This document shows positions 16 through 63,242 of a DNA stretch of 64,000 bases, piece after piece. The DNA comes from a virus. Its lineage: Duplodnaviria > Caudoviricetes. The notes below the pieces were generated by a model, which did no database searches, was not told the DNA's origin, and saw only the letters and a program-made list of their open reading frames with translations. Every line of letters starts with the position of its first letter. Within the stretch, counting starts at the first letter, position 1. The position numbers and the translations under genes are program-made. The stretch spans positions 1-64,000 of IMG/VR virus record IMGVR_UViG_3300037067_013225; one strand, given 5' to 3'.

Positions 16-342
16 ATGATCTACTTACATTATGTGGGGAAATTGGAAAATGATATTTTTGTAGAGCCGCCGGTTCTGGTAAGTGCGGAGACGATTTTCC
101 CAGACGGTAGGGTATTAGATCCGAATGATCGATATACATATTCAGATTTGTGTAGAGAGTTAGAATTAGAAGTTAGTTGCCTAAGTTATCGTTTTATCAA
201 GATATGTAAAAATTGTATTATCCCAGAATATAAAAAACCCAGCTATCCTCTAGCTACCTATCTGGAGGATGAAGATCTATTTATCCTGATAGGTCATAAA
301 AACGAACAGCCAATAATGTTCTTTTCGATAAGCGAGGAATAA
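16..342 (+). CDS. hypothetical protein
   Basis: 108-aa ORF with GGAG SD; first of a tightly packed operon. Confidence 0.7.
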   Translation: MIYLHYVGKLENDIFVEPPVLVSAETIFPDGRVLDPNDRYTYSDLCRELELEVSCLSYRFIKICKNCIIPEYKKPSYPLATYLEDEDLFILIGHKNEQPIMFFSISEE

Positions 343-762
343 ATGCTTACAGATATTGAATTTCATGTCATGAATGAACGTGGGCAGAACACAGAGCATA
401 AGGATTTTCGCAAATCGCCCTCAGATACATGTCAATTAGATTTCGGACTTTCCTATGCCCGTAAATCAATTCCGATGATTAATATTTATCTGCCACCAAC
501 TCTCGCTGGCGGGGAAATATTTTTAACGGAAGGGGACGCCATTGAAATGATGAAACAACTGGCATCGGTAATTGATGCCTGTAAAAATCAATATCCATCG
601 GGGCGTGATGCTGAATATATGATGCATGGTGAATGTCCGCCACCGAGAAAATCTCTAATTGATTGTTTTACGGCGATTGATAGTCTTGGGCAATGGGCCG
701 ACGGTGAAAATGCAGAGAAATATGTTGAATATGCTGAAAATCAAGACTCAAGAGGTTGTTAA
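343..762 (+). CDS. hypothetical protein
   Basis: GAGGA SD; abuts neighbours. Confidence 0.7.
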   Translation: MLTDIEFHVMNERGQNTEHKDFRKSPSDTCQLDFGLSYARKSIPMINIYLPPTLAGGEIFLTEGDAIEMMKQLASVIDACKNQYPSGRDAEYMMHGECPPPRKSLIDCFTAIDSLGQWADGENAEKYVEYAENQDSRGC

Positions 763-1119
763 ATGCAATACGCATATTATCTGCATGTAAATGGAGATCT
801 AATTTGCAAAAATGCGATATCTTATAATGATATCTGTGGCGATCTGGTACGTAAGAAATGGCTTCTCGATACCGATAAGCGTATAGATGCATGGCGGGTG
901 GTATTGGAAGCGCTTGGTTTGGGTTGCAATATAAATCGGGCAAAAGAATTAATCTCAAGATGGGAATTAACGAAAGAGGATTCCGGATATGCTATTGTTC
1001 ATCTATACGGAGAGCTTAATGAACCGTTGCGTGTTGGATTGCGCATATATATAGAGGGATGTCTGGGCGAAAATTATGATGAATTTTTCGATTGGTTGCA
1101 AGATAATCCTCTGCCATGA
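763..1119 (+). CDS. hypothetical phage protein
   Basis: GAGG SD; ATGA overlap with next gene. Confidence 0.7.
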   Translation: MQYAYYLHVNGDLICKNAISYNDICGDLVRKKWLLDTDKRIDAWRVVLEALGLGCNINRAKELISRWELTKEDSGYAIVHLYGELNEPLRVGLRIYIEGCLGENYDEFFDWLQDNPLP

Positions 1120-1409
1120 TAAATATCAGCTTTCAAGAGATACAAGATTTTGTTAATAGGTTGTGTTCCGTAACAACAACCGAAATAACCACATATACCT
1201 ATTCTCGATCAACACCTCCTGTATATTTTGTTATTCGTATTGATCAATTGACTTGGAGTGTCAAAATTAAACGAAATTATATATTTCCGACGGATGGAAA
1301 CGATTTATGTTGTCAGATATCTGAAGACAATGTGAGACGTTTTTGGAGCGATATATATGGGGCTATTGCGGAACTGATCAACATAGATTATGTGGAGATT
1401 GATTTTTGA
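1116..1409 (+). CDS. small protein with C-terminal EIDF tag
   Basis: ends DYVEIDF*; coupled to both neighbours. Confidence 0.8.
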   Translation: MINISFQEIQDFVNRLCSVTTTEITTYTYSRSTPPVYFVIRIDQLTWSVKIKRNYIFPTDGNDLCCQISEDNVRRFWSDIYGAIAELINIDYVEIDF

Positions 1410-1717
1410 TGAAGATAAACATACCTAATAATGCACGTATCGTTAATTTCAATATTGATCGCCAAGACGCATACCAAAGCGAATATGGTAGGGTAGTCTT
1501 TGAAGAGCTTGATCCGATACTAAGGGATTTCTGCGTATATATGAGTAACGATGAGAATGCATTGTTAGTTTTGTGTGTGAGAGATAAATCCGGTGTAATG
1601 TGGGAATGGGATACCAACCTACCGCCCGTTGCTAGAAGCACTAAAAAGAATATTGCCGAGGGAGTCAAATACATAAAGAGTATTTTTGAGGAAGAATTTG
1701 TAGAAATCGATTTCTAA
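1406..1717 (+). CDS. EIDF-tagged protein, paralog of 11082..11378
   Basis: ends EEEFVEIDF*; shares KINIPN, LDP.LR.FCV, EWDT, AEGVKYI with 11082..11378. Confidence 0.85.
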   Translation: MMKINIPNNARIVNFNIDRQDAYQSEYGRVVFEELDPILRDFCVYMSNDENALLVLCVRDKSGVMWEWDTNLPPVARSTKKNIAEGVKYIKSIFEEEFVEIDF

Positions 1718-1732
1718 AATTGGATTTATGAA

Positions 1733-2170
1733 ATGCCAAACCCTATAAAGAGAGTTTTTCATCACATTGTAAACTTATGGAACACACATCGTAGCAATTC
1801 AATGTGGCGACGTATAATGAGGGATCAATATGCCGTTAATACTTTCTTAATAATAGCGAATTCTAGATTGCTTGACGAAGCTCCCCTAAAACATGTGTGC
1901 TGTTATTTTGAAAATAAGAGATTGATGGTAACTGGGAATATTGCTATTGAGAATGTAGGTTATCTGGCGGGAACCCGTGACGTTCTCCTGCGTTATTTTG
2001 ATTTTTCTTATACAGATACCGTACAATTATATGACGCATTAATACGTAGACCTTCCGTAAAGATGAAGCATGCCATAATGGATAATTTTGTCTTGAAAGT
2101 GAATTGTGTAATTATGGATGCATGGACACTGCCTGTACCAGATATAAATCTGACAATGATTGATTTTTAA
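1733..2170 (+). CDS. IDF-tagged hypothetical protein
   Basis: ends NLTMIDF*. Confidence 0.75.
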   Translation: MPNPIKRVFHHIVNLWNTHRSNSMWRRIMRDQYAVNTFLIIANSRLLDEAPLKHVCCYFENKRLMVTGNIAIENVGYLAGTRDVLLRYFDFSYTDTVQLYDALIRRPSVKMKHAIMDNFVLKVNCVIMDAWTLPVPDINLTMIDF

Positions 2171-2361
2171 GACTCCAATAGAGGAGATATTCTAACAATA
2201 TATGGTAGTTTTATTTTAATGTCTAAAAATGACATAATAGAGCCTTGCGGTGGCTAAAAAAGGGCCATCCACAGTATAACACAAAACCGCGCCACATGCA
2301 ACCAAATCCCGCTTTAATTTTCGTTATATTCCGCTCACAGGTGGGTTAAACGGATTTAACC

Positions 2362-2390
2362 TTGCAAATCGCGAGTATTCATGGTATACT
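2362..2390 (+). promoter_or_regulatory. sigma70-type promoter, leaderless argS mRNA
   Basis: TTGCAA-17-TATACT; in-frame ATG at 2396, 5 nt after the -10, no SD. Confidence 0.7.
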
Positions 2391-2395
2391 GGGCT

Positions 2396-3811
2396 ATGCT
2401 TAACTCATTTCGTGCTTGGCTGGCTGGCGAAGGTCTTTCGGGTATCGCACGTCCATATATGCTGAACGATAATAATATCGGTTATTGCGTTAATGCATAC
2501 GGAATAGATCATCCATCGGTTACGAATGGCTATATTAATTATTTCATAGAGCCAAAAGCAGTTATAGATCATTTATCCGATTTTACCTACACGAAGCACA
2601 AAACGCAATCAAATATCGCAATCGAATATGGGCAATTAAATACGCATAAAAATCCCCATCTGGGGCATTTGCGCAATATTTGTATCGGAAAAGCATTATC
2701 GGCTTTATCTAATGACGTTTGCACCAATGTTACATATCTGGGCGATCATGGAATGCATGTGGCTAAATGTATGGTTGGGCTGCGTGCCGGAATAAAGGAT
2801 ATTCAGGAAGCATACGAATATGGAAATAATCAGTCCGAAGATATCGTATGTGATGAAATGGCTCATTGGAATGCGGAAGATATATTATATAAGGATAGTA
2901 GAGCCGAAAGCATCTCTAACATTCGCCATTTATTCGATTATTTTGGCGTGAAATTTTCCGACTATGCATACGAGAGCGATTTTTTGCAAAAAGATATCTT
3001 GATTGAATTATTATCTGATATCGGATATTGGGGAAACGATAAATATAGTGACTGTTTTGTTGTGGATACTGATTGTGGAACAATTGTTTTAATCAAGGCA
3101 GATGGTACACTGCTTTATGCCGGGAAAGATATTTTGTTGGCGCAAAACTATTCCAAGCGATATGATGAAGTTCTGTATGTCGTGGGACAAGAGCAAATTC
3201 AATATTTCAAACAATTGTCATTCATACTTAATAAACTTTTCCCGCAAACGAAAATAAAGCATATAGATTATGGGTTGGTTACTACCCAAGGCTCTAAAAT
3301 ATCTTCTCGTGCCGGTGCATCATCCGCATGGGAATTAATTGATCATCTAGAAAGTATCATATCCAAAACATATCATTGCGATATCGAAACCACTCAGATC
3401 ATTGTATCAAATATCATATATTATGAGATGCTTAAATCGGATTATAAAGCACCTGTTAAATTCATAGACGATGATCAATATATCAAAAATCAAGGGATTT
3501 CTTACATTATGTATCAGTATTGTAGAGCGAAAACCATTACAATGACGGATACTGATTTCGATACATTTATACCGGATACATCGTCGATTAAATTGCTAAG
3601 ATCTCTCCTATATAGTACGGATAATTTAGATTGTACAAATCCGCAAAAGCTATTTTCTACTTGGAGCGATATTGCGGCATCTTTTTCAAACTTCTATACA
3701 AATAATAGAATAAATGGGAATCCACAAGCCCTGGCTCTAACAAAAATATTTATAAATGTTAACAATATCCTAGCATACCTTCTAGATATACGTTTACCAG
3801 AGCGTATGTAA
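2396..3811 (+). CDS. argS: arginyl-tRNA synthetase (compact)
   Basis: IEYGQLNTHKNPHLGHLRN (HIGH region), YLGDHG, LIKADGTLLYAGKD, YVVGQEQ, KISSRAG, YIMYQYCR, FSNFY; start moved from 2381, which overlaps the -10 box. Confidence 0.9.
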   Translation: MLNSFRAWLAGEGLSGIARPYMLNDNNIGYCVNAYGIDHPSVTNGYINYFIEPKAVIDHLSDFTYTKHKTQSNIAIEYGQLNTHKNPHLGHLRNICIGKALSALSNDVCTNVTYLGDHGMHVAKCMVGLRAGIKDIQEAYEYGNNQSEDIVCDEMAHWNAEDILYKDSRAESISNIRHLFDYFGVKFSDYAYESDFLQKDILIELLSDIGYWGNDKYSDCFVVDTDCGTIVLIKADGTLLYAGKDILLAQNYSKRYDEVLYVVGQEQIQYFKQLSFILNKLFPQTKIKHIDYGLVTTQGSKISSRAGASSAWELIDHLESIISKTYHCDIETTQIIVSNIIYYEMLKSDYKAPVKFIDDDQYIKNQGISYIMYQYCRAKTITMTDTDFDTFIPDTSSIKLLRSLLYSTDNLDCTNPQKLFSTWSDIAASFSNFYTNNRINGNPQALALTKIFINVNNILAYLLDIRLPERM

Positions 3812-3827
3812 AATCCAGGTTAAATGC

Positions 3828-3856
3828 TTGACTTGCGAGAGATTTGGTATTATACT
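3828..3856 (+). promoter_or_regulatory. sigma70-type early promoter
   Basis: TTGACT-17-TATACT, then GAGGAG SD. Confidence 0.8.
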
Positions 3857-3878
3857 AACGATAGTTTAATCGAGGAGA

Positions 3879-4115
3879 TTGATCATGATGACAAAAGCCT
3901 ACATTCAACAGGTAACACGATATATGAACGCTTTTCCGCATATTCAGATGGATGTAGAGTATTCGGATGAAGATAACTTGTGTCGCGCAGTGTTATTCAC
4001 ATATAATTCTTATTGTTATCGTTTTTGGTGCTCCGCAGATATCGATCATTTTTTATTCGGTTTGGCATGCGGTGCGCGAGTGCCGAAATTTAACCTAGAT
4101 TTAACGGACATTTAA
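3879..4115 (+). CDS. small early protein, paralog of 5497..5739
   Basis: both contain PHI, YNS, ID.FL and end VPKFN.DLT.I*. Confidence 0.75.
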   Translation: MIMMTKAYIQQVTRYMNAFPHIQMDVEYSDEDNLCRAVLFTYNSYCYRFWCSADIDHFLFGLACGARVPKFNLDLTDI

Positions 4116-4154
4116 CCGTTTATCATTGCAACATGCGGTAGATTGCGCTATAAT
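4089..4154 (+). promoter_or_regulatory. promoter with three 11-bp-phased TTTAAC boxes
   Basis: TTTAAC at 4089, 4100, 4111; TTGCAA(4126)-17-TATAAT(4149). Confidence 0.8.
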
Positions 4155-4178
4155 TAAGCTATTCTGAAAGGAGACGAT

Positions 4179-4400
4179 ATGTTAAACGAAAATCAAATCG
4201 TTACAATCACGCAATCCGATACGTTTCGGGATGCGCTGCGAAACAATTCGGACGTGGCTTATTGTTTGAATTGCGGGAAACAACACACACGCTCTATCAA
4301 TACCGTTTATGGGCATTGCGGCGCATGCAATCAGGATTATGTTTTCGGTATCGCGGAAATAGAGGCAATGTGCCAAGATACGCTTATTCTGGAGAAATAA
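4179..4400 (+). CDS. small zinc-ribbon protein
   Basis: CLNC...CGAC; AAGGAG SD. Confidence 0.75.
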   Translation: MLNENQIVTITQSDTFRDALRNNSDVAYCLNCGKQHTRSINTVYGHCGACNQDYVFGIAEIEAMCQDTLILEK

Positions 4401-4670
4401 ATTGGATACACAATTGTTTCGAGGATATGAAATACGGGCCAATCATCTTCCTTTAGCGTATGTGCATAACGTATCCGATATGGAAAGCGCACTTAGCCTT
4501 TGGGCGAAAGAAGCGTGTTATATTCTGGGAGATATACAATACGATAAAATAGGAGAATATGCGGTCGCGCCAGTATATGAATTAGATGGTGAACGTGCCG
4601 GAAATGTATCTGTAGCATCTATCGGGACGATTTGGCCCACGGATGCGCTTGTAATTGATGGGAGTGAGAA

Positions 4671-5204
4671 ATGTCTCAATGGACACATGTTGCGGGAATA
4701 ATTCGATTGGATCACTTAAATATTTATCCTAGTTATCCATATAAATTCGTCGATTCCGATCATACAATCAGTTTAAAATCGGTTAAAAAACAAATATTGT
4801 ATGATCAAAAAAAGGCTACGTGGGAAAGCCGTCATACGCCGGATTATTCTCACGAAATCTATGAGTGTTTCGGTACAACACTAACTTATGAAGATTTGGC
4901 ATGCATGGATATCGATGATGAGGCTAAAACCATCGTCCCCATGGGAACCGAAGGTAGTCTCCAATATGAAGTTTGCCATGATGGAAACTATAATGATTTG
5001 TATTGGGGACATATTTCTATTTATGGTGATTTACGAGAATATTGTGATTCTGACGCAATCAAGCTTTGGATTACAGAATCACTAAATCGCCTAATGTCTA
5101 TGAGCAGTTGGATGGTGCGTCAGGGTGTTATGATGATTCATGTAGAGGGATATGATGCGGAAATTTTTCAGATAGGAGATCGCAATGAAGATATGGCTGG
5201 ATGA
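4671..5204 (+). CDS. hypothetical phage protein
   Basis: 177 aa, GGGAG SD. Confidence 0.75.
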   Translation: MSQWTHVAGIIRLDHLNIYPSYPYKFVDSDHTISLKSVKKQILYDQKKATWESRHTPDYSHEIYECFGTTLTYEDLACMDIDDEAKTIVPMGTEGSLQYEVCHDGNYNDLYWGHISIYGDLREYCDSDAIKLWITESLNRLMSMSSWMVRQGVMMIHVEGYDAEIFQIGDRNEDMAG

Positions 5205-5493
5205 TTTAAGACCAGCACCGGATGGTTTTATCTGGATTAAAAGCTATGTTGAAGCAATGTTTTTTCTTTCCATCCGAATAACTCAACATTTTTTGCTTGG
5301 CGATCCGATAGATATTGATGAAATATCCCTGGATCATGATCTGGGTGGTGAACATGATGGTGCGGATGTTTTACAATACTTAATCGATAACGATTGCGTT
5401 CCTGAAATAACGGTATTTCATACACAAAATCCCGTAGGTAGAGCGGAAATGGAACGAATGTTGCAACGATATTATGAGAGAAAATCGGAGTAA
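5185..5493 (+). CDS. cyclic-phosphate-processing receiver-domain protein
   Basis: KIWLDDLR.P, ISLDHDLG, HTQNPVG signature motifs. Confidence 0.8.
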   Translation: MKIWLDDLRPAPDGFIWIKSYVEAMFFLSIRITQHFLLGDPIDIDEISLDHDLGGEHDGADVLQYLIDNDCVPEITVFHTQNPVGRAEMERMLQRYYERKSE

Positions 5494-5496
5494 ACA

Positions 5497-5739
5497 ATGA
5501 AAATCGAATATGTTAATCGCGTTAAAAGGTATGTGGAAGATTATATGCCGCATATCGATGTGCAGATTGTGCTGAATACACGCAATGGTATCGATTTCTA
5601 TGCGGAATATGTAGTTTTTGAGTGTTACAATTCTCGCCGGTCTTATGTAAGCAGAATTGGAATCGATAGATTTTTGGAGGAAATGTCGAAGGCACTTCCT
5701 GGTGTGCCGAAATTTAACCCGGATTTAACGTATATTTAA
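5497..5739 (+). CDS. small early protein, paralog of 3879..4115
   Basis: shared motifs; 3' end overlaps TTTAAC boxes. Confidence 0.75.
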   Translation: MKIEYVNRVKRYVEDYMPHIDVQIVLNTRNGIDFYAEYVVFECYNSRRSYVSRIGIDRFLEEMSKALPGVPKFNPDLTYI

Positions 5740-5778
5740 TCCGCCGCTCTATGAATCCGCCTCAAAAAGCGCTATAAT
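5713..5778 (+). promoter_or_regulatory. promoter with weak -35 and phased TTTAAY boxes
   Basis: TTTAAC 5713, 5724, TTTAAT 5735; TATGAA(5750)-17-TATAAT. Confidence 0.75.
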
Positions 5779-5801
5779 TAGACCATCTTAAGGAGCATTA
5801 A

Positions 5802-7919
5802 ATGTTGAAATACGAAAAAACGACCGCAAGGGTTATTGGTAAAATCAGGGATTTACATGGTGGCAAACCGATTGTTATCGATTCTATTGATGTTTATAAC
5901 ATTCGCACCCAATATGCGGACGCACCAGAAAAATTGGAGCAGGTAATCGAGAAGCTTCAATTAGCAATTTATATATTGTGCGGTGGCGGAATGCTGGCAT
6001 CATTCGCGCAATGCCAACCCGGACAGTTTTATATCGATGGGCGCGTAGGGAAGTTGCCCGGTACCCGTGCGCAGATATATAATGCGGTAGCTTTGCTGTG
6101 TTTGAACGCTACTGCGGCGGGATATGACATTAACGGATTTGATCATACCAAAAAATGCTTGCATGAGGTTTCATTACCTTATGCTGGTTGGATTTTGGAG
6201 GGATGATTTATGAAGGAATATCCGAATGTTCAAGCCGCCATTCCACTAGATGAGAATGGCGAAGTAGATTGGAGCAAATTCCCACCCATCTTGGGATATA
6301 CCTCATATTTATCATGCGGATTCCCGGTATTCACACATGATCATCCCTGTTATAGTACCGCATCGGAATATTTTGATGATTGGCCTTTGCAAGATTTGCG
6401 CGATGCTCTACAATTATTGCACGAAAGTGCCTTAAACTCGATAGAGATCGAACGCAAAAAGGCTGGCAAAACGTGGCACGGATATAAATATGTTGAATAT
6501 CCCGAACAAGATGCAATCGCGATGATACAGGATCTTATATTTCGGAATCGCAATCGCTTTAATAGGGAGACTAAGTGTGAGCAATAAATTGAGAGTTATT
6601 GTTTTAACAGAATATAATAGTCAAGAAGAAGGACAGGCTATTAAGAGGATTCTTCTGCATTCTCCAATGGCAGAGTCGGTTCTTAAATCTGCCGATGTTG
6701 CCTTTAAAATATATGAGGTAGAAATGCCAGGAACGGAGCCAATTGGGAGCTATGAGATAGAGCCAAGCCCAGGCTCTACTAAAATATAGGAGCGAATATG
6801 AGATATTATTATGCATTATTTAATCGATTTACAATCAGTATGCGCAAAGATGCTGTATTGGATTGTGCTCATCCTGGTGCTTGCGATAAAGGGGTGGCGT
6901 ATTGGGTAGGACGCATGAAACGCCAGTTATCCAAAATAGATCCGCAAGATATCGCAAAAGAATTAGCCGAATATGGGGCTTGGGATGAAAATGAATTACA
7001 AGATCATGATGCGAATTTGCAACGCATCGTATGGACAGCCGCAAACGATATCAGGGAGGATAAAAAGTGGTGATGAGAATAAAACGTGATTATTTTCAGT
7101 TGTTGGCGTCTTTACTCCTTTTGGTTGTCGTTATACTGACGTTTATGTTATTTTCGCCAATGCGGTTTGAAAATGCCACACAAGCGCATTTAGCGAGGGA
7201 TGCCGCTAGGCTAGCTTTATTGCATGAATTAGATAATAACGGTTGTATTAACGTTATCGAAAGGGACGAAATGTGGAATTTGGAACGCGAGATAATTATT
7301 CGTAAACATATGAATGAGGGAAAGTAAATGTTGGTACCGATTGTTGTCAGACATCATGTTATTTTGGATATTCCAGAGGCAGTTACCGAAGATCAGGCTC
7401 GGACTATTTTAAAAAATGCATCCGCAGAAAAGTTAATGCATAAGTATCCCGTGGTAAGAGAATATATGCTCCAATATGATTTTGAGATTGATGATCATGG
7501 CTTTGCGATTTATAATGATCCAGAATGGCAATATGATAATTTGTCTTCGGAGCATTGTAAGGAAATACGGGATGAGAAATTGTATTATACGGTAGAGGAA
7601 ATGCCCGCATTGGTCGAAGAAGCCATGCAGGAGTTTAGGGATACACTAATAAGTGTTTGCGGCGAAGTCTGGGCTGCTTCCCAGCTACACAAAAATGAGG
7701 AGAAATAAAATGGAATTGGTTACGCAAGGTTGCGAATTGGAATATGATGATTTGGGTTTGCGTGCGGTATGGCAATATCGGGATGCCAATGGGGAGATTG
7801 CAGCAGCCGCGATGGATGTATTGGGTTTGATTGATTATTTTACGCGGGTAGAATTGCTACATTTACATCCTTACGAGGATAAGTCGCTAAACATCCACGC
7901 AATCGAAAATTTAACGTAA
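5802..7919 (+). other. operon of small hypothetical early genes (5802..6206, 6210..6587, 6577..6789, 6798..7073, 7067..7327, 7328..7708, ~7709..7919)
   Basis: contiguous + strand ORFs with SD-like motifs; 7067..7327 has one hydrophobic helix; no recognised domains. Confidence 0.65.
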
Positions 7920-7965
7920 ATTTAACTGCAAGGCTCTATGAATCTGCCCTCAAACGTGCTATAAT
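7910..7965 (+). promoter_or_regulatory. promoter with weak -35 and phased TTTAAC boxes
   Basis: TTTAAC 7910, 7921; GGCTCTA overlapping TATGAA(7937)-17-TATAAT. Confidence 0.75.
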
Positions 7966-7990
7966 CATATTAGTTGTAAAGGAGAAGTCA

Positions 7991-8575: not shown

Positions 8576-8814
8576 GAAGTTTGAATATGCGCGTGAGGCA
8601 TTTGAAAAGCTGAGCAAGATTTATCTTGATCCAAACATTACCATGATTGTGGAAAATTCCAATACTGGGGATGTTTACAATATCGATGATGTGGAATTCT
8701 TTCAACACAAAGAATGCGGGGGTGTTTTGAAAATCGTCATTTACGAACGTCTTGATGATGACGAAGAAGAAATGGATTTCTTATTCGGAGAATGTCGTAC
8801 CGAATAGCGAGAGC

Positions 8815-8843: not shown

Positions 8844-8877
8844 GGTATTATGCTGAAGGTTACACAAGGAGAGCAAA

Positions 8878-12621: not shown

Positions 12622-12650
12622 TTGACATTCGCGCTTGAATGTGATACAAT
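12622..12650 (+). promoter_or_regulatory. strong early promoter
   Basis: TTGACA-17-TACAAT with extended TG. Confidence 0.85.
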
Positions 12651-16312: not shown

Positions 16313-16392
16313 TTTAACCGGAATTTAATACGGCAGTTTAACGTCAATTTAACTTAGACGCTCTATGAAAACGCATCGGAAAGTGCTATAAT
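16313..16392 (+). promoter_or_regulatory. promoter with four TTTAAY boxes
   Basis: boxes 16313, 16324, 16337, 16348; TATGAA(16364)-17-TATAAT. Confidence 0.75.
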
Positions 16393-16434
16393 ATAAATCA
16401 TTAGAGCCTTGGGCTTAGCAATAAGGAGAAATGT

Positions 16435-19045: not shown

Positions 19046-19137
19046 TTTAATGAATATTTAACCGTAATTTAATACGGAAGATTTAAGCGAAATTTAACCT
19101 AAAGGCTCTATGAATTCGTACAAAACCGTGCTATAAT
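19046..19137 (+). promoter_or_regulatory. promoter with five TTTAAN boxes
   Basis: boxes 19046, 19057, 19068, 19082, 19093; GGCTCTA overlapping TATGAA(19109)-17-TATAAT. Confidence 0.75.
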
Positions 19138-31693: not shown

Positions 31694-32200
31694 ATGAGCG
31701 AAAATGAATTGCAACGATACATAAACGACAACCTCTCTATTCGTCAAATGTGTGAAATAACAGGAAAGGGATATTCAACAATCAGATATTGGTTGTCTGT
31801 TTTTAATTTGAAAACTAATCATAAGAGTTTTGGACAAGCAAAACTGATACAATTTCGGTGTTGGATATGTGGTGATACTAATCCTGACCATTTTTATGGT
31901 CATAAGAAAAGTCTTTGTAAGAGTTGCTATAATGCTAAAGTTATTACTCAGCAGGATCAAAATAAACGAGACATAGTTAAGTATTTGGGTGGTAAATGTG
32001 TGAAGTGTGGTTATGATAAAGCTTGTTGTTCATTAGAGGTTCACCATTTAGATCCAACAAAAAAAAAGATTAGAGGCTCTTCCTTAAAAAATTATAAAAT
32101 AGCCAGTCTTATTGAAGAATTGGATGGTTGTATTTTGCTTTGTTCTAACTGTCATAAAGAGGAACATCACGGAATTCTCCCTCCAATCGGCAATGAATAG
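31694..32200 (+). CDS. HNH endonuclease, homing-type
   Basis: N-terminal HTH-like segment; CWIC/CKSC; GGKCVKCGY...LEVHHLDP...LLCSNCHKEEH. Confidence 0.9.
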   Translation: MSENELQRYINDNLSIRQMCEITGKGYSTIRYWLSVFNLKTNHKSFGQAKLIQFRCWICGDTNPDHFYGHKKSLCKSCYNAKVITQQDQNKRDIVKYLGGKCVKCGYDKACCSLEVHHLDPTKKKIRGSSLKNYKIASLIEELDGCILLCSNCHKEEHHGILPPIGNE

Positions 32201-49700: not shown

Positions 49701-50113
49701 AGTTATCTAATCGCAAAAATGTCCGCCCTCAGTTTGCCGAAGCTCTAGCACCGCAACGTCAGTCACGTATCATGGAGGGGATTAATGCCGCCAACACACA
49801 GCGTCGCCAACAGGAGCGATTTAACGACGTATTGAATCGCGATATAAAAAACACCCTACAGGGTGATACGGATTATATGCCTGGGCCAGAATTTCGTGGG
49901 AAGGTTGGATATTTAAGCCGCATGATGGACAAAAAGATGAAACCGGTTGAAGGTAAGATTGTTGGTGCGCCGGAAACTTTGGGCGGGAATCCTCAGAAAT
50001 TCGACATATATAGCACTCGCGGTATTCATCGTATGGGAACGCCAGAGATTGAAAAAATATATCAGGGCGTTAATGATTTGGCTTCTAAGAGCGAAATCGC
50101 TTTTGATCAATAA
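46787..50113 (+). CDS. multidomain probable virion protein: DUF5661-like, kinase-like and M15-type peptidase
   Basis: GMNVEHEH...KIALAHLRE..DYYDKL; LGEGLYRRVY...VVKIP...DVHSGNFG...SLDY; EGFRT..RQ..L...HGAGFAVDI...DFNHYE. Confidence 0.75.
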   Translation: MKYGNAIIARRLLCKAIKYPYSEKDAEKIGKKIGASEEEIARLRQGMNVEHEHDQDSETNVAHGRHKIVAKIALAHLREMLDYYDKLKTIEKGNSQFQAYASAYSDFSNLANNDTLRNLDTLQDQYLEATGIDHNYANQVLDQIKKTVVPLAKQYNQTWDKYSQIIAAPRLMQFGLNRLDENDFDNPMLLARGHFRNYGKALNNFKNFLSGQLTQPRDNFAKADRYETQPGKSLLDVMHRVLKFNSEHPPTPQPIVTPEDKNRHEQITHIHSLRETPETESPFIGGDTFDKALSPQHHQSILSQLEGKNEDELRAGGILGDRLGEGLYRRVYSLKQYPGLVVKIPLSDRSIENNKTEYQHYQKFRDSGAKKYVAPIYGITSNGISLAKRVDPLPKDVANQLDRLDILSNPMHEARLKKIVGLGVDDVHSGNFGIDRGKLVSLDYNKAIPDPLDTSKDVELVDQSLEHLDPDFSEMILSLIDRARDFGLELYIREGFRTRARQQYLSDVVNAQGAGVAPPIYTQEGMIDFDERTFPHGAGFAVDIGIKGLEQQEDAYHAFLHKLWAAMYPGKVNPDPIPDDFNHYEASKEFIDKNSRDLTESDHYGEFMDIFSKARRAIAGKSRAWGDILHHYIRDIHTPGLDNRSVIPVDKYKSILANAISYHIRNHRPGAHEYEQRTPEETKIRTSLFHNLMEGKGLDDRYLSDLDPAHDSKIRALQGLVNETNWSSRDDLEKLERNVTRLNNVPSAPATASSPPPGALPISEFLNRNKPAPQWTPQALKPRPVVDQALLDRLTSNTPGQDFIDANKQAWKQSFAKPVQAMAQGVEGLGRKMGVIKATYVDQIKERTAQDPYESAGLNQGQISDLVRRLSNVSNPVPRNMQPLLVPQSTPEPSQDPYEAAGLEKKKISDLVQRLLNIRYKEPENILQPETQEPTSSSDIVSTSTDTNDLISQAESDFAPKPRFMSERSYNQLSNRKNVRPQFAEALAPQRQSRIMEGINAANTQRRQQERFNDVLNRDIKNTLQGDTDYMPGPEFRGKVGYLSRMMDKKMKPVEGKIVGAPETLGGNPQKFDIYSTRGIHRMGTPEIEKIYQGVNDLASKSEIAFDQ

Positions 50114-51495
50114 ACCGCAAAACGATTATCCCTAACATGCCCGATAGATAACATCAGAGAGCATACAATATCATCATGTATGCCTTCAAACGTAATATGA
50201 CCTTTCGATGTTTCTTCGGCACGATATCCTAGCAGTTCGTCCTTAATTTCCGGTTCATCCCACATGGCAATATCTTCGCTAGCGAGTTTAACACATAGCC
50301 GTTCTACTAATTGATTTTTCTTGTCGTTGGTAAATTTAAATCCAAGTATTCTGACGCCATAAATACCATACTTATCTTTAAGGCGTCGCTCTACTTCTCT
50401 TGGTATGGACGATCCTTCTCCAGTTGCATCTATAATTACATCTAGCACTCTTCCGCGCGTATACAGACTCGCAATAAACTGACATATACGGTCGATATTC
50501 TGATCATCGCCTAGCTGATTCCATTTGTCATAACCGACCATTTTGTATTCGTCTGTAAATGCCGTACATACGGTACAGTCGTATAAGCGTGCATAATCAA
50601 TCCCGATAGTGATGTGTTCGTTCGGATATGGTGTATAAAATCCGCGTGGAAACCAGATATCTTCAGTAAAGGCGAATACTTCGCCGGTCATTGAATCGAA
50701 ATCGCCATCCCATTCTTTTTTAAATTGGCCGATTTTATATGCGGTTCCGATAGCATATGCTTCTTCTTTGGCGGCATAATAGTCTGTGGATGATGAAAAT
50801 GGGTTATCTAGGATGTGCAATTTAAATGCGCGTAATCTAGCTTTATCTATGTTCGACATTTTTCGTTGTTGGCGATCTGCCAACTTCCACATTTCTTTAA
50901 ACCAGTTATCACCACGCGGACTAGAGATTGCTAGAAATTTGCCCATTCGTGCCGCACGGTTTAATGTTGGTTTCACTAATTCGTATGCTTCATTCTCGAT
51001 AATACCAGCTTCGTCCGCAACTAATAAATCGGTTTCAAAACCAATCACCGCATCTGGATCTTTCGTTGAGAGAACCTTAAGTGTAGAGCCTTGGGTGCCG
51101 ACTTTAAGCGTGATGCTTTGTTCCTGGTTATTTTTTACCATTCTGCCGACTTTGGATTGTAATAATGGGCTGGACATACATGCATTGAAAACTTTATCAA
51201 ACACATAACTACAGTGGTTGTAAGTTGGGCCGATTAAATGTACTTTTCGATTAGGCATTAATAATTCTTCCATCACACGTACTGCGCCGATATGGGATTT
51301 TCCAGTACCACGAGAAGATACCACGTATGTTTCTTTTGCGGGTGTCATTAATATTGGGACTTGTTTGTCATATGGTACTAAGTGTTCTCCGAATTGTTCC
51401 CACAGTGCAATACGCTTATATCCCAGACCAAGCGCGGCATCGCGATCTGTAAGAATTTCCTGATTCATGAACGGCAGCAAGCCATCTCTATTCAT
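50107..51495 (-). CDS. terL: terminase large subunit
   Basis: SSRGTGKS (Walker A), LLVADEAG (Walker B), ISSPRG, GIDYAR, IDATGEG, HDDIVCSL. Confidence 0.92.
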   Translation of the reverse strand: MNRDGLLPFMNQEILTDRDAALGLGYKRIALWEQFGEHLVPYDKQVPILMTPAKETYVVSSRGTGKSHIGAVRVMEELLMPNRKVHLIGPTYNHCSYVFDKVFNACMSSPLLQSKVGRMVKNNQEQSITLKVGTQGSTLKVLSTKDPDAVIGFETDLLVADEAGIIENEAYELVKPTLNRAARMGKFLAISSPRGDNWFKEMWKLADRQQRKMSNIDKARLRAFKLHILDNPFSSSTDYYAAKEEAYAIGTAYKIGQFKKEWDGDFDSMTGEVFAFTEDIWFPRGFYTPYPNEHITIGIDYARLYDCTVCTAFTDEYKMVGYDKWNQLGDDQNIDRICQFIASLYTRGRVLDVIIDATGEGSSIPREVERRLKDKYGIYGVRILGFKFTNDKKNQLVERLCVKLASEDIAMWDEPEIKDELLGYRAEETSKGHITFEGIHDDIVCSLMLSIGHVRDNRFAVY

Positions 51496-55043: not shown

Positions 55044-55195
55044 ACCAAAGACAGTTTATAATCCGAGTTTTGTAGAGGCTGGAGATGTTCCAGTAATGTT
55101 TTTAATGTCTTTAACTCGCGGTACAGAAGATGGCCCATTTCTGGGAATCCCGGAAAATGCAAAAGAATTAGGTTAAAATTGGTTAAAATAAGGTT

Positions 55196-55813
55196 ATGGC
55201 AAAGTCTGAAATTGAACGCCTAGATCATGGCTTTAAGTTTAAGCATCATCGTTTGCACAAATTGCTTCATTTTATTATGGATTTGCGCAAAGATAAGGGT
55301 GCAAAATCCTACGATTACGAGCAGCAGATTTTACAATTGGCTAGGATTTTAGTACAGCATCAAGATTTTGCCGATATTTCTAGATGGTCTCCCGAAGAAC
55401 TCTGGCATTACCAAGAGGGGCATCATGATGCCGATTGGAAACGTGCCGTTCGATACATGAATGATTATTTGTGTCCGCCCGAAGGCGATCAAGAACGGAA
55501 AGAATATAACTATCAGATGTATGTACGTAACGTGGAAGATTACGCTTCTACAGTGAACAAGCCACAGATGTCTAGAGGTTTCGCACGCAATACGGAATGG
55601 GAAAATTCTGAAGTGGCTGCGATGAATCCTCCATCATATCCCAAGAGCGATTCAGATCCATCCAATTACGGATTTTATCAAACGCCATTTAAACGTCCCG
55701 ATGCGAATATCTATTTGGAAAATGATCAATTTAATCAAAAACTTATGGAGAAGCTTGCGAATAGCGAATATTTTGCGATGATTTTGCGCAAGAAAGGCCG
55801 GGATAAAAAGTAA
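55196..55813 (+). CDS. head-region hypothetical protein
   Basis: TAAAAT-6nt-ATG; between portal and protease. Confidence 0.7.
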   Translation: MAKSEIERLDHGFKFKHHRLHKLLHFIMDLRKDKGAKSYDYEQQILQLARILVQHQDFADISRWSPEELWHYQEGHHDADWKRAVRYMNDYLCPPEGDQERKEYNYQMYVRNVEDYASTVNKPQMSRGFARNTEWENSEVAAMNPPSYPKSDSDPSNYGFYQTPFKRPDANIYLENDQFNQKLMEKLANSEYFAMILRKKGRDKK

Positions 55814-57810: not shown

Positions 57811-59180
57811 TTAGGGACATTGTTTGCGACTTATTAAAGGGGCATCCATATTTCGGGAATGTGGGAGAGTTTGCACAACGTCAGATAATCCGTGCATATA
57901 TTTTGGATGCTCACGAATATGTTTTCAATGATGATAAAGAAACGTATAAGCTTTTGGAGGCTTTGCAAAATTTTGCACCTGATATTCTTAGTAGAGCCTT
58001 GGGGATTGATGAGGCCGCTAAAACGTCTTGCTTTATGTTTGACGAATTAGAGAAAAAAACTATATTTAAGGGTATGTTTGACAAACAAATACCCAACGAG
58101 GATGAATTCTTTTTTGTCATAGAGACAGCTTTGGCGGAACATCCGTTTATAAGATTTTCGCAAGATAAAATGCACTTAAAGTGTGAAACTGGCGCACCGG
58201 TGATAAATTTGGATTTGGTTGATATCGATAAAGTTGTCAAACATCTGCTAAATCCTAATGTAGAAGTGCCGGAAATTCCCGCAAGCCATCTTCTCCCACT
58301 GAAGCACTTACCATTTAAGGATGATATAATTGCCTATCAATATCCATATTTTATAATCGCACTAATACTTAGAGATCTAGGACCGACTATAAGCAAGGCG
58401 ATTGTAAATCAGATAGATCAAACACAATTAGTTAAGGTTATCAATAACTTGACGAATTATCTAACACCAATATTAAGTGGTGATGAAGTCATATATCAGG
58501 GTTCGGACAATCAATTTAATTTACGATCCATGATATATAATCTAGAGATGGAAAGTTATGGTGTTTCTTCTTCAATGATTAATGATGCAAAGCAAACATA
58601 CATCAGAGACATGGCTCTACTAAAACAGCACATGATATCCAAAAATCAAGATGAAGGATATTGGCATGTAATTAATTATCAGATAGAGAAAATACCCTTT
58701 GTTAGAAGTATGGGGGATTTCGCCGGTCCGCAATTATTAAACGCCTGTTATGAGTTCGTTTCCAACAATATGCATGATGAGGGATTTGCGTCGCAGATAC
58801 CGGATTTATTTGAGACGATTCGTTGCAATGTCGAATCAATCATGGAGCAATTCATGGATGAAGCGGTGATGCCGAAAGTGGTGGAGGATTATAAGGATAA
58901 ATTCATGCAATTCAAGCGGATGGTTCCGCAGTCGGTTTTAAATAGCGCTAACGCGCAACAACTAGCAATAGAACTACTCAAACAAGCGCAATTAGTATAT
59001 TTGAAGAAAATAGGCACATTTATTGCTATGGCTGCACAACATTTTAATTTGCCCATGCCCTATATTCGTGTCGGTTGTGCTGGGGATATGACGGAGCAAT
59101 ACGGATTGGAATTAGCTAAATCTGGTGTTCATGTTTCCAATATTGTGCATAAATTTATTCCGGTGAGTTGGGATGATTGA
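57807..59180 (+). CDS. head-region hypothetical protein
   Basis: 457 aa, coupled. Confidence 0.7.
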   Translation: MIRDIVCDLLKGHPYFGNVGEFAQRQIIRAYILDAHEYVFNDDKETYKLLEALQNFAPDILSRALGIDEAAKTSCFMFDELEKKTIFKGMFDKQIPNEDEFFFVIETALAEHPFIRFSQDKMHLKCETGAPVINLDLVDIDKVVKHLLNPNVEVPEIPASHLLPLKHLPFKDDIIAYQYPYFIIALILRDLGPTISKAIVNQIDQTQLVKVINNLTNYLTPILSGDEVIYQGSDNQFNLRSMIYNLEMESYGVSSSMINDAKQTYIRDMALLKQHMISKNQDEGYWHVINYQIEKIPFVRSMGDFAGPQLLNACYEFVSNNMHDEGFASQIPDLFETIRCNVESIMEQFMDEAVMPKVVEDYKDKFMQFKRMVPQSVLNSANAQQLAIELLKQAQLVYLKKIGTFIAMAAQHFNLPMPYIRVGCAGDMTEQYGLELAKSGVHVSNIVHKFIPVSWDD

Positions 59181-59937
59181 TTTATCCAGATCAATGGATG
59201 TACCACTTCAGGATAATGCTCTCGGAACATATAACGAAGCGCGCATGGTATTTGTTAGCGATATTATAAATACTTTGCCAGATAAAGAAAGAATCATAAA
59301 GCTATATGGTAGCATTCCGAATCTGGTGCGAGAATATATCAAACAGTTACGCGATATTATTCGCGATAATACGACTATAAATATCATCATAGATACGGAT
59401 ATATTTGGGTGTGGTTGCGCGGGATATTCTAATCTGCAAATATTGCAAACTCTACAGGGAATATATGAGTCAGACACCGCCAAGGCTCTAGATGATAGAA
59501 GGATATTCGACTGGATTAAACAAAATCGTACCAGTGTACAAGATCTAGTATCGTTAGTACAGTTAGATGAAATAGATATGGTTCACGTATCTGATACGGA
59601 TGGGGAATATATCCTATATCAGGGCAGAAAAATTCCCAGCAATTTTTCCAGCAAGCTATCAAAGTCCGCAGTGCAGGAATTGGCCGCAGACAGTAGAGCG
59701 ATGGATCAGGTTATGAGACCGAATCCATCTAGCGGAAGATTGCGCAAACAAACGGATATTCCCAGAGAAACTATGGCGATTCTATTTAGAACATTGTTCG
59801 CTTTACCGGATGCTGCTGATGAACGTGGCGAATTAGCCACAGATGTACATAGAGAAATCGATACAAAGAATACACCAGCCGATCCCAAAACATTCCAAAC
59901 TATTTTCAGAAAGTTTTCTAAAACGGGTAAACTTTAG
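59173..59937 (+). CDS. head-region hypothetical protein
   Basis: 254 aa, coupled. Confidence 0.7.
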   Translation: MIDLSRSMDVPLQDNALGTYNEARMVFVSDIINTLPDKERIIKLYGSIPNLVREYIKQLRDIIRDNTTINIIIDTDIFGCGCAGYSNLQILQTLQGIYESDTAKALDDRRIFDWIKQNRTSVQDLVSLVQLDEIDMVHVSDTDGEYILYQGRKIPSNFSSKLSKSAVQELAADSRAMDQVMRPNPSSGRLRKQTDIPRETMAILFRTLFALPDAADERGELATDVHREIDTKNTPADPKTFQTIFRKFSKTGKL

Positions 59938-59939
59938 TT

Positions 59940-61898
59940 ATGCGCAACGCATTTGTAACTGGTTATCCAGTATCAAAATTGGCAAAATTGGAAGATGGCG
60001 ATGTAATTATTGAGGGCAAAGCCGCAACAAATCATCGTGATGTTCAAGGCGATATGATTAGTAAGGGAATGTTGCGTAAAATTGCAGATTCTCTAAATAG
60101 TGGACGACCGTTATATTTGAATCATTATTATCATACGCCGCCCATTGGGCAAGTTCTAAAAGCCCGGTATATGGAAGATGAAGATGAAGCTTATGTGTGG
60201 GTTCGGGCAGTTATAGATACGAACGATTCTGAGATTAAACGTAATGCTGCTGCTGGCAGAATGCCATATTTCTCTATCGGGGGACATTTACTAGATTATA
60301 AGATGAATAAAGCGGGCGGAAAAGAAACTCGCGAATGCTTAGACGGAAATATTTTAGAGCTATCCATAACACCAGCACCGATTAATATTATGGCTGGCTA
60401 TACTATTGCGAAGGGATCTATTATCGATTTACAGCATAATTTAGCGATGTTCAAATCGATTATTGAAAATTACGATTCGGAAAATTATAATAAAATTAAT
60501 ATAGATAGTATTGAGTTTAAAGATGTAGAGTTCGTTAAAAGCGAGGAATCTAACATGGAAGGTAAATCTGGTAAGGCCACCGGTTTTACAGACGTTAAGG
60601 AAAAGACACATCGTGACACTCCTGTTTTCGGCGAAAACGGCGGTACACCGGGTGTTACGGGCGAATTACCATCATTGGGTAACGGATTCAATGGGCAGAC
60701 CAAGTTTGCTGAGGAAAATACAGATAAGTTTGTAAAACCTAGCACTCGTGGTGATTCTCGTGTTGTAGATCCTCTCAATTATACAGCTAATAAGGAAGTA
60801 TTTGAGGGTCACGATTCTAAAGCTATTCCTACCGGTGAAGATTATAACGATTTCGGCGGGAACAGTGAGGGTAACGGATTAGATCCGCATTCTAATTCAT
60901 GGATCGGCTCTCAGAACAGTGCCACGTCTAGCGTGACAAATCCGAGTTCCGGCGCATCTCCGGAACCAGGCAATGCTACGGATAAAACCGGCAGCACTTG
61001 GCTTGAAAAGCATCATTCCGATTATGAGGGAATGAAAAAGTCCATTATGACTTGGGATAAAGCACATAAGGCTGCGTTGGTAGACGCTCTATTACATGAC
61101 TTTGGCTCTACTAATATTTATCAAGAAGATTACGAATCCGATATCGAAGCAATGCACAGATTAATTGAATTGGGTCAAAGCCCGAAGCGATTCCGCAAGG
61201 GCGGTCGGCAACGTGAGATGCTTGAATCTGAGATTATTCAGATTGCGAAAGCAACAGATTTCACACAGGTGGAACGCTCGTTATATGATCGGATGTTTAT
61301 CGGCCATCTAATGGGTATGCATTTGGGTGATTTTGAGAAATATTTAAAAGCGGCTGGTTATGAAGACGAGGAAAGCGATCCTATGGCGGAAAGCGCTGAG
61401 TCTGCTCCTCCGTCTCCGCAGGTAGAATCCGGTGCTCCACCGGCTCAAGAGATGCCACCCGAAGCTTCCGCTGGCGGTGGACAAGCTGATGAATTTCAAC
61501 AGTTAGTGGAGAGTGATCCAGAGTTCCAGCAGGCCGTGATTGCCATTCTACAGAAATATGGCCTGGTTGATGAGTCAGGGCAACCAATCCAAGGCTCTAA
61601 CCCCGATGCAGAGGAGCAAGCCACAGAAGAAATCAAACAATTGTTTGAGCAATACAATGGGCAGGATGAACAGCCCGCGCCTTCTGGTCCGGTACCTTCG
61701 ATGGCTAAATCTATGACAGATATGGACATTCGCAAGGCTGCACGTGATGCATTTGATGAGGCGCAAGCACAGGGGATTCTACGTTCACGGACAATTCCTG
61801 AAGAGCAACAGTATCCCACTGTCAAGGGTGAACCAATCAGCCCATCTCAGATGGCGTTAGCGCAATTTATTAAGCATAACGCTTATGGTAATAGGTAA
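59940..61898 (+). CDS. HK97-type prohead protease fused to scaffold-like region
   Basis: IEGKAAT..RDVQGD, LNH...PIG, FSIGG, ELSITPAPIN; long acidic C-terminus. Confidence 0.88.
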   Translation: MRNAFVTGYPVSKLAKLEDGDVIIEGKAATNHRDVQGDMISKGMLRKIADSLNSGRPLYLNHYYHTPPIGQVLKARYMEDEDEAYVWVRAVIDTNDSEIKRNAAAGRMPYFSIGGHLLDYKMNKAGGKETRECLDGNILELSITPAPINIMAGYTIAKGSIIDLQHNLAMFKSIIENYDSENYNKINIDSIEFKDVEFVKSEESNMEGKSGKATGFTDVKEKTHRDTPVFGENGGTPGVTGELPSLGNGFNGQTKFAEENTDKFVKPSTRGDSRVVDPLNYTANKEVFEGHDSKAIPTGEDYNDFGGNSEGNGLDPHSNSWIGSQNSATSSVTNPSSGASPEPGNATDKTGSTWLEKHHSDYEGMKKSIMTWDKAHKAALVDALLHDFGSTNIYQEDYESDIEAMHRLIELGQSPKRFRKGGRQREMLESEIIQIAKATDFTQVERSLYDRMFIGHLMGMHLGDFEKYLKAAGYEDEESDPMAESAESAPPSPQVESGAPPAQEMPPEASAGGGQADEFQQLVESDPEFQQAVIAILQKYGLVDESGQPIQGSNPDAEEQATEEIKQLFEQYNGQDEQPAPSGPVPSMAKSMTDMDIRKAARDAFDEAQAQGILRSRTIPEEQQYPTVKGEPISPSQMALAQFIKHNAYGNR

Positions 61899-61908
61899 GG
61901 ATTTCGCA

Positions 61909-63162
61909 ATGAAAAAGAAGCAAAGCTTCCTTAAGGGTTCCAACCCAGAGGCTCTACAAAAAGCAACTACAGTATACAGCCCTTCCGCTGTAACATCTGG
62001 TACATCTGCTGTTGGGTTTAATATTTCTCAACAGGTTGGCGATTTGTCCAGTTTCCCCATCATGGGTACTCCGGGCGTCTCTAACAGTATCGGTGGTCGA
62101 GATTTTCTCTCTGTAGACGTAACTACGGATTTTATTCCGTATATCAACCAGGCGTCCTATATGCGGAGCCATTTCGAAGTATATCCTATGGACGGTCCTT
62201 CCGTATATAAGCCGAAGTTCGCTGGCGCGGCTAACGCTTATGCTACTGGTGAAGGCCAAGTCATGGCACATACTCAGTTCCCAACCACTACGGTGGCGTT
62301 GGTGGCAAAGGCCATGGCCGTATCGTTTAGCGTTCCGCGAGAAATTGCTGACGATGCGATCATTAACCTGATGCCAGCTATTCGTGACCACCTTGTGGAC
62401 CGATTTGTTCTAGCAGAGGAAGAGGCATTCCTTTTGGGCGATCCTACATTTTTCGCTGGAACCGGATCTGTTAGGTCAATGTTCAGTGGTATTTCTAAGC
62501 TAGCCGAATATGATTCCGCTGGCGGCGACGATATCATGGCGAATAACGCCGCTCCGCTTGTCAATGCGGAAGGCAACCCGCTATCCATTGAGCACGTCAA
62601 CGAGGCTATTGAGAATCTCGATCTCATGGCGCAGAATCCTGACGATTTGCTCGGTATCATGAACCGACATCATGCCCGCACATTGCGCGGCGATGGCGTT
62701 GTGTTGAAAGTGCTAACCAATTTCGGACCGTCACCCGTATTTAGAACCGGTCGTATTGGTGAGGTATTTGGTATTAAGTTCGTACAGACAAGTTTGCTTA
62801 ATCCCAAGTATCCTATTGCGTCTAACGACGGCAAGTATTGGTCTTGGGTCGGATTTGGTGGCGAGACTCCGGCTGAGATTACGTCTCCCGGTAGCGATTC
62901 GTTATCCGATTTCGGCACCGGGAACCGTATTTATGCACAGTATAATACCGCAGCCGCCGCTGCGGCTGCTCAAACGACATATAGCGAAATTCTTATTGCG
63001 CATAAGGATTCGTGTGTCATAGGCGACAGGCAAAGTATTGAGCTTGAAAGTAGCGCACATACTATGTTGCCAGCTAGGGCTTTGTTACTCGTAAGCCACC
63101 AAAGAGTGGCCTTCACCGGCCAAATAAGAAAGGGGCTAACAAAAATCGTGCAGCTCTCCTGA
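61909..63162 (+). CDS. major capsid protein (HK97 fold)
   Basis: follows the protease; AAGGA SD before 61909; EEEAFLLGD, GEVFGIKFV; strong terminator after. Confidence 0.85.
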   Translation: MKKKQSFLKGSNPEALQKATTVYSPSAVTSGTSAVGFNISQQVGDLSSFPIMGTPGVSNSIGGRDFLSVDVTTDFIPYINQASYMRSHFEVYPMDGPSVYKPKFAGAANAYATGEGQVMAHTQFPTTTVALVAKAMAVSFSVPREIADDAIINLMPAIRDHLVDRFVLAEEEAFLLGDPTFFAGTGSVRSMFSGISKLAEYDSAGGDDIMANNAAPLVNAEGNPLSIEHVNEAIENLDLMAQNPDDLLGIMNRHHARTLRGDGVVLKVLTNFGPSPVFRTGRIGEVFGIKFVQTSLLNPKYPIASNDGKYWSWVGFGGETPAEITSPGSDSLSDFGTGNRIYAQYNTAAAAAAAQTTYSEILIAHKDSCVIGDRQSIELESSAHTMLPARALLLVSHQRVAFTGQIRKGLTKIVQLS

Positions 63163-63191
63163 TGTCATAGCATATACCATATCGTATACTG

Positions 63192-63216
63192 AGGCTCGAA
63201 AGAGCCTCTTTTTTTG
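63192..63216 (+). terminator. intrinsic terminator
   Basis: GAGGCTC-GAAA-GAGCCTC plus T run. Confidence 0.92.
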
Positions 63217-63242
63217 CAATAAATATCCAATAGAGCCGGTGC

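Follow-up and report, generated by a model that had tools for sequence, protein, structure and literature searches.

The stoperators of mycobacteriophage L5 are numerous asymmetric sites, some of them lying over promoters; most fall between genes and point the same way as transcription. The programmed nicks of T5, tf and the phiKMV-like phages are marked by a lineage-specific asymmetric word that occurs once every few kilobases and inside genes, with all sites on one strand (PMC3517423). Chi, the signal of RecBCD and AddAB, is an asymmetric, orientation-dependent 7–8-mer, host-defined and polarised, that can be over-represented in phages (PMC3784561). The priming sites of T7 gp4, 5′-(G/T)2GTC-3′ with a preference in the 3′ flank, are dispersed single-strand sites for lagging-strand starts (PMC12839067). 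Site-specific primases of the archaeo-eukaryotic primase (AEP) type, such as RSF1010 RepB′, ColE2 Rep, NrS-1 PrimPol (TTTGGTTA; GTG) and pRN1 ORF904, combine an AEP domain with a C-terminal bundle and read a short asymmetric word on one strand; their long sites mark one or two origins. Here, the heptamer GGCTCTA (TAGAGCC on the other strand) is described from a 64,000-nt stretch of phage DNA, referred to as the window, which comprises bases 1–64,000 of the 202,677-bp IMG/VR virus record IMGVR_UViG_3300037067_013225 (G000; about 91% complete). The heptamer is a genome-wide signal maintained by selection, which keeps it independently on each strand at intervals of roughly 2 kb. When tested against nick sites, stoperators and methylase targets, the set lacked in each case a feature that defines the family.

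The preliminary description of the window counted about 60 copies of the heptamer. There are 61 exact copies (35 on the plus and 26 on the minus strand), every listed coordinate among them, against 3.69 ± 2.04 expected and a maximum of 10 in 100 dinucleotide shuffles. The Markov check that it proposed places GGCTCTA first among all 7-mers of the window under models of order 0–3. Across the whole genome the copies number 186 (109 plus, 77 minus) where an order-2 model expects 13.3, and every 10-kb bin holds some. Predicted genes contain 163 of the 186, compared with 19.5 ± 4.8 (maximum 31) in codon-preserving shuffles, so that the enrichment survives the very control named as its possible refutation. 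As had been claimed, the word is not a peptide motif: it is found in four of the six frames (35, 55, 33 and 40 copies), while one frame would create a stop and the remaining one has none in 38 possible places. Neither codons nor peptides therefore explain the excess, and the copies in genes are written by synonymous codon choice. They are oriented both ways relative to transcription (90 sense, 73 antisense), which argues against a transcriptional link, and show no clear bias in position within genes; density is 1.39/kb in intergenic DNA and 0.8–0.9/kb within genes. The apparent excess on the plus strand (109:77) disappears once coding opportunity is allowed for (0.235 vs. 0.289 of places realised, P = 0.16).

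One-letter variants occur near expectation, except for CGCTCTA (51 vs. 16.7) and GCCTCTA (31 vs. 10.6). The extended consensus is about cc(a/t)(a/t)-GGCTCTA-h-w-A-A-A-w. Upstream, C is present three and four bases before the word in 53% and 44% of copies; downstream, A occupies the third to fifth bases in 74%, 58% and 52%, the third being the strongest flank position. A G never directly precedes the word, because GGGCTC is avoided genome-wide (0 copies). The flank CAA or CTT, previously called frequent, is present in only 15 and 5 of the 61 window copies, respectively (47 and 19 of the 186). Neither AGCC/GGCT stems nor folding energy is in excess around the word, which gives no support to a hairpin. 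A search of the available literature found no paper joining either orientation of the heptamer with a phage, and wider searches gave nothing direct.

The spacing of the copies, which the preliminary description suggested examining, is non-random, and it is so on the same strand only. Same-strand neighbours in the window are on average 1.7 kb (plus) and 2.5 kb (minus) apart, with shortest gaps of 272 and 301 bp; the genome-wide means are 1.9 and 2.6 kb, and once the C variant is counted too the medians are 1.2 and 1.6 kb. The coefficient of variation (CV) of the gaps is 0.80 with strands pooled (0.99 for random placement, P = 0.001), and 0.65 and 0.73 for each strand separately. Same-strand pairs closer than 300 bp are found at 0.20 of expectation and opposite-strand pairs at 1.00, and both the same-strand ratio and the CV are the lowest among 986 comparable words. 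When sites were redrawn among the places where the word fits synonymously (2000 draws), the 5 same-strand pairs within 300 bp compared with 24.0 ± 4.7, no draw being as low, and the 24 opposite-strand pairs with 17.5. The inverted pair to which attention had first been drawn (Table 1) is real but atypical; opposite-strand pairs occur at the chance rate overall.

The share of possible places that are actually used climbs twelvefold with growing distance to the next same-strand copy, from 0.04 (<200 bp) through 0.19 (200–400 bp), 0.23 (400–800 bp) and 0.25 (800–1500 bp) to 0.49 (>1500 bp), and it ignores the other strand, against which it is flat (0.29 to 0.21); this is an unusually clean signal of selection. 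Since the neutral level of place use is about 0.03, a close second copy on the same strand is merely not favoured, and it is the long gaps that are filled. One-letter variants also shun same-strand copies (18 vs. 33.9 expected) and not opposite-strand ones (45 vs. 35.8). Two other enriched words of the genome show no distance trend. A plain double-strand binding site is disfavoured, because it would space copies whatever their orientation. Whatever its nature, the reader of the word acts on one strand at a scale of 1–2 kb; it appears to sense one strand or one direction, and to belong to the phage lineage.

The genome belongs to a tailed phage, and the window includes the genes for terminase, portal and capsid. 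No cultured relative was found by megablast, or by tblastn with the capsid or primase; the terminase matches listed in cultured phages are at most 29% identical. Relatives in protein collections share 96%, 68% and 54% protein identity, and searches gave no identification of the host. A complete syntenic relative of 220,861 bp (G001) has a terminase 49% and a primase 43–44% identical to those of G000. Comparison also covered a 9-kb fragment (L026) whose primase is 43% identical, and a 21-kb terminase fragment. GGCTCTA has no copy in the 21 kb around the terminase of G001 and is absent from its enriched 7-mers. Instead, G001 carries a sister word, CTCTTTA (184 vs. 52) and CTCTTCA (129 vs. 41), extended to (g)gCTCTTYATc. 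There the use of GCTCTT places rises from 0.10 to 0.27 with same-strand distance and is flat for the opposite strand (P ≤ 0.001). The 9-kb fragment has GGTCTAA (7 plus, 7 minus; 11 in genes vs. 1.9), and the 21-kb fragment carries GCTCTAA, with GCTCTA at 22 copies vs. 8.8; TCT is common to all four words. An enriched word is accordingly present in three of three syntenic primase-bearing family members (G000, G001 and L026), with spacing demonstrated in G000 and G001. The signal is a family trait with drifting spelling, and the drift would imply a co-evolving, phage-encoded reader. An excess of GGGTC in relatives is probably a side effect of GGWCC avoidance, as its next base is almost always A or T, and a 14-kb sequence (L102) has no spaced word.

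The preliminary description took the heptamer for a protein-binding, modification or programmed-nick site. Its view of a genome-wide signal holds, and selection acts on it; modification by the phage's own methylase is improbable, and a nick is possible. In favour of modification, the genes of G000 include those for a D12 methylase and a Mom-like protein, along with a sugar-nucleotide cluster. G001, however, keeps its sister word with no PF02086 (D12 methylase) match and no Mom-like match, which removes the D12 methylase as the reader. A neutral by-product of codon use, peptides or restriction avoidance is largely refuted by the eightfold excess over codon-preserving shuffles in four frames, and the control words show no distance-dependent gain. 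A modification target or a neutral effect is thus very improbable as an account of the set.

The sugar-nucleotide cluster, as read from translations, comprises about 11 sugar-nucleotide/glycosyltransferase-like genes (genome 70972–82945), one of which matches GDP-mannose 4,6-dehydratase. Most are 46–71% identical in G001, about the level of conservation of the capsid, and virion or DNA glycosylation is a possible role. A separate word, GATATC, has 319 copies in G000, about twice the codon-shuffle expectation; they are clustered rather than spaced, and the word is depleted in G001. It may be the target of the D12 methylase, encoded at genome 151876–152613.

The reading ranked first is that GGCTCTA is a lagging-strand start site for the phage's AEP primase, to which a probability of roughly one in three is given; the enzyme is a candidate, and its link with the word is a prediction. 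Bacterial Okazaki fragments are 1–2 kb long. The per-strand gaps of GGCTCTA are near this scale, and there are sites on each template strand. Outside the window, G000 encodes DnaE, a DnaB-type helicase, a DnaC-like loader, ligase, an AEP-TOTE primase, SbcCD-like and PD-(D/E)XK nucleases, RuvB and a sigma-70-like factor; RecA and RuvC were recognised from annotated orthologues in related phages. Neither a DnaG-type Toprim domain nor a zinc ribbon was detected in G000 or the complete G001, and the AEP appears to be the only primase of the family, being the only one detectable in the sequences.

The candidate is a 305-aa protein with a match to the AEP profile PF22548 and a predicted fold like that of CAPP (7P9J/7NQD, E = 2e-14). 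The AEP motifs DxD and sG.kGxH are retained, and D75/D77 and H114 are invariant in 10 homologues. Its C-terminal domain is a predicted three-helix bundle. Among the top 15 of 48,161 chains in a structure search with this bundle were RepB′ (Z 6.3, root-mean-square deviation (rmsd) 3.3, 77 residues aligned), ColE2 Rep (Z 6.2, rmsd 3.2, 69 aligned) and PriX (Z 5.9, rmsd 4.4, 72 aligned). The candidate would thereby share the AEP-plus-bundle arrangement of the site-specific enzymes named above. The primase is placed first among the readings because of the Okazaki-scale gaps, its standing as sole apparent primase, and the nearness of the bundle to those of RepB′ and ColE2 Rep.

Helical bundles of AEPs bind primase sites, and the NrS-1 enzyme reads an 8-mer (PMC8718748), while RepB′ reads ssiA/ssiB (PMC4538821). 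ColE2 Rep makes the primer ppApGpA (PMC9743546), complementary to the TCT that the family words share. With CAPP, the first nucleotide is GTP or ATP and faces a pyrimidine (PMC8211822), and T7 priming sites are shaped by their 3′ flanks (PMC12839067). A replisome of DnaB-type helicase and DnaE polymerase would expose single strands, on which an AEP with a RepB′/ColE2-type bundle would start primers at GGCTCTA, the grid fixing the starts of Okazaki fragments on whichever strand is lagging. Sites on both strands would be required by forks travelling in both directions, which a phage with its own RecA, SbcCD-like, RuvB and RuvC genes is expected to have. The template could be GGCTCTA itself, with a primer that begins with a purine and lies opposite either the TCT core or the 5′ CC; alternatively, it could be TAGAGCC, with the primer opposite the T tract. 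The comparison with known AEPs also has its differences, since in place of one or two origins there are 186 copies spaced per strand, without a hairpin, and the enzyme–word link is only predicted. T7 gp4 is a DnaG-type enzyme with a zinc-binding domain, a domain not found here, and GGCTCTA is longer than its site and about 14-fold enriched.

If the primase reading is true, the genome would set the length of its Okazaki fragments and the primase would act on self DNA only. Such a reader would amount to a genome-encoded map of Okazaki starts, with an enzyme–word pair that could be swapped between relatives. Because the family has small candidate proteins whose predicted words differ, the identity of the reader can be put to the test. 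More broadly, and tentatively, large DnaE-encoding phages may have exchanged DnaG for a sequence-specific AEP, with lagging-strand starts laid out as a grid of about 2 kb on both strands and the word drifting with the enzyme.

Several observations weigh against priming. The Z scores of the bundle are middling, and unrelated helical proteins equal them. Characterised CAPPs prime at short, loose sites. Among nine distant metagenomic AEP-TOTE phages, four have no such word and five have an enriched CGGTCC or CGGCA without same-strand spacing (formally tested in three); four cultured phages with related primases also lack a spaced word. The primases of these nine metagenomic and four cultured phages are at most about 37% identical to that of G000. 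The proven 8-mer of NrS-1 occurs once in the NrS-1 genome and so failed as a positive control. Opposite-strand pairs within 1 kb are more often divergent (53) than convergent (31; P about 0.001), which is unexplained. Lastly, 13 early promoters of G001 hold the sister word between their −35 and −10 boxes, an arrangement that priming does not predict. In two phages of about 60 kb (G015 and G010; L046 and L039), CGGTCC is enriched 3- to 6.5-fold relative to codon shuffles; its copies lie on both strands, occupy all six frames and show no same-strand spacing.

The genome of NrS-1 (AB746912, L144) also contains GGCTCTA, with 12 plus and 2 minus copies in 37 kb where 2.8 are expected, which makes it the fourth-ranked of all 7-mers. 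The copies are evenly spread and independent of gene direction, and their flanks differ from those in G000, with which NrS-1 has no convincing protein in common. NrS-2, annotated without a PrimPol, has 4 copies. The NrS-1 excess may suit a link with the primase, although chance is possible given that about 15 genomes were inspected.

The same excess in an unrelated temperate phage is also what a Chi-like signal could leave. At such a signal a helicase–nuclease, either the host's AddAB/RecBCD or the phage's SbcCD-like or PD-(D/E)XK protein with an SF2 helicase, would, following a double-strand break, halt at a correctly oriented copy and hand over to RecA, which would call for regularly spaced copies in both orientations. 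Being directional, it likewise predicts spacing on the same strand only, and this account and priming, both absent from the preliminary description, fit the spacing as well as or better than those it offered. RecA, SbcCD-like, RuvB, RuvC and PD-(D/E)XK proteins are encoded by the phage, and breaks are likely since many restriction palindromes are avoided. Chi is host-defined and polarised, whereas GGCTCTA varies within the family, has no strand bias once coding opportunity is corrected for, and resides in a phage with its own recombinase; the change of word between relatives does not fit unless the nuclease is the phage's own. In lambdoids, host Chi is selected against by phages that carry their own recombinases (PMC3784561). 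One copy is present in the 10-kb host flank of NrS-1 and, as stated, 4 in NrS-2; only 3 of 8 aligned sites are retained, a level expected by chance. The 10-mer CAAGGCTCTA shows no enrichment in 31 diverse bacterial genomes, among which the phage host was not identified. On balance, a Chi-like role is unlikely.

Regarding the avoided words, seven have zero copies in both G000 and G001 (CGATCG, GAGCTC, GGGCCC, GGGCTC, CCCGGG, CTGCAG and AGGCCT), and GGATCC and CAGCTG have 0–1. This common avoidance suggests related hosts with many restriction systems.

Close pairs on opposite strands bear on programmed nicking, in which a phage nickase would cut at or beside GGCTCTA on both strands for packaging, ejection or the seeding of recombination-dependent replication. 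Convergent pairs are always at least 114 bp apart (none within 100 bp against 4.2 expected, P = 0.015), a pattern that fits a cut made 3′ of the word which may not be opposed by a second one; yet there are divergent pairs separated by 14 and 31 bp. Asymmetry, lineage specificity and a density like that in tf (14 nicks in 46 kb) are shared with nick sites, but all described sites are one-stranded (PMC3517423), whereas GGCTCTA is evenly spaced on both strands. HNH genes are present in G000, although no nickase conserved in full length between G000 and G001 was found: the HNH gene at genome 89090–89752 has only a weak N-terminal match, and a candidate at 31694–32200 has a 97-aa, non-syntenic one. 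Nicking at the word is accordingly doubtful, to about the same degree as a Chi-like role. Should the word instead mark a grid of nicks on both strands, or a Chi private to the phage, that too would be undescribed in the papers found.

Another nuclease gene, of the two-motif LAGLIDADG type (genome 63274–64341), follows the major capsid gene directly, in G000 as in G001. Its catalytic aspartates are intact, so that it is a typical homing nuclease and was rejected as the reader of 186 sites.

Some copies are linked to promoters (Table 1). The overlap with the −35 region noted in the preliminary description for two sites is real, but it is not general: these sites and the variant at 16359 each begin 28 nt before a TATAAT, and the three promoters are related copies of one another. 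A copy lies near 7 of the 27 predicted promoters of G000, against 3.3 expected. GGCTCTA as the −35 element of a phage sigma factor is ruled out for most copies, as there is no peak of −10 boxes downstream.

Table 1. Coordinates of the heptamer set, selected copies and associated genes (window positions unless marked as genome)
Feature	Position	Strand	Remark
Set of 61 GGCTCTA copies	62..63237	both	continues to 186 copies genome-wide
Closest opposite-strand pair, TAGAGCC-N7-GGCTCTA	6758..6778	both	atypical of the set
GGCTCTA over −35 region of extended −10 promoter	7932..7938	+	TATAAT at 7960
CGCTCTA variant at the same 28-nt offset, related promoter	16359..16365	+	TATAAT at 16387; minus-strand GGCTCTA at 16402
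GGCTCTA over −35 region of related promoter	19104..19110	+	TATAAT at 19132
Terminase large subunit	50107..51495	−	served to identify the phage and find relatives
Major capsid protein	61885..63162	+	62% identical in relative G001
GGCTCTA 12 bp upstream of TTGACA −35 box	63231..63237	−	behind major capsid gene
CAPP-like AEP primase (predicted), 305 aa, C-terminal helical bundle	genome 163420–164337	+	outside the window

These promoter-linked copies could be operators or stoperator-like sites, at which a double-strand DNA-binding regulator would silence early promoters and coat the genome. The −35 overlap in three G000 promoters, the spacer position in the 13 early promoters of G001, a copy following the primase-operon promoter in G000 as well as G001, and the higher intergenic density are all in its favour. 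The asymmetry and partial promoter overlap are shared with the stoperators of L5, which are mostly intergenic and co-oriented with transcription, whereas here the great majority of copies are inside genes, some of them sense and others antisense. Binding to double-stranded DNA leaves unexplained a spacing that is blind to the opposite strand, the promoters are duplicated modules that may simply offer free places for a site, the G000 excess is small, and no regulator common to G000 and G001 was identified. This makes an operator role improbable; a reader outside all those considered here is slightly more probable than an operator, but less so than nicks or Chi.

Duplicated early promoter modules are located at window positions 12622, 13436, 15223 and 17515, and also at 7921, 16348, 17387 and 19093. 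Several have an upstream TTTAAC element, which is common to the early promoters of G001; the latter use TGTTT and GGGTATAAT boxes where G000 has TTGACA. The divergent promoter region ahead of the primase operon (genome 163036–163420) contains the phage's own word in each of G000, G001 and L026, and that of G001 also has short direct repeats; the region is a possible replication origin. The gene behind the primase (genome 164315–164977) is fast-evolving, and its nearest Atlas matches are NurA-like nuclease clusters (score 0.90); as a lead only, it could encode a primer-processing nuclease.

Elsewhere in the genome, 47 predicted proteins of G000 (window 1116–38432 and the rest of the genome) end in (I/V)-D-F-stop, and a ClpP-like protease gene is present at genome 187811–188431. 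The ClpP-docking loops of ClpX and ClpA are IGF/IGL. The IDF C-termini may resemble these loops, a likeness offered as a lead only, and five G001 proteins have LEI C-termini in place of IDF. An AT-rich palindrome, GTTTAAAC, was found at 10–11 copies in 50 kb of 62% GC DNA in phages R5C and Pan1 (L146 and L148).

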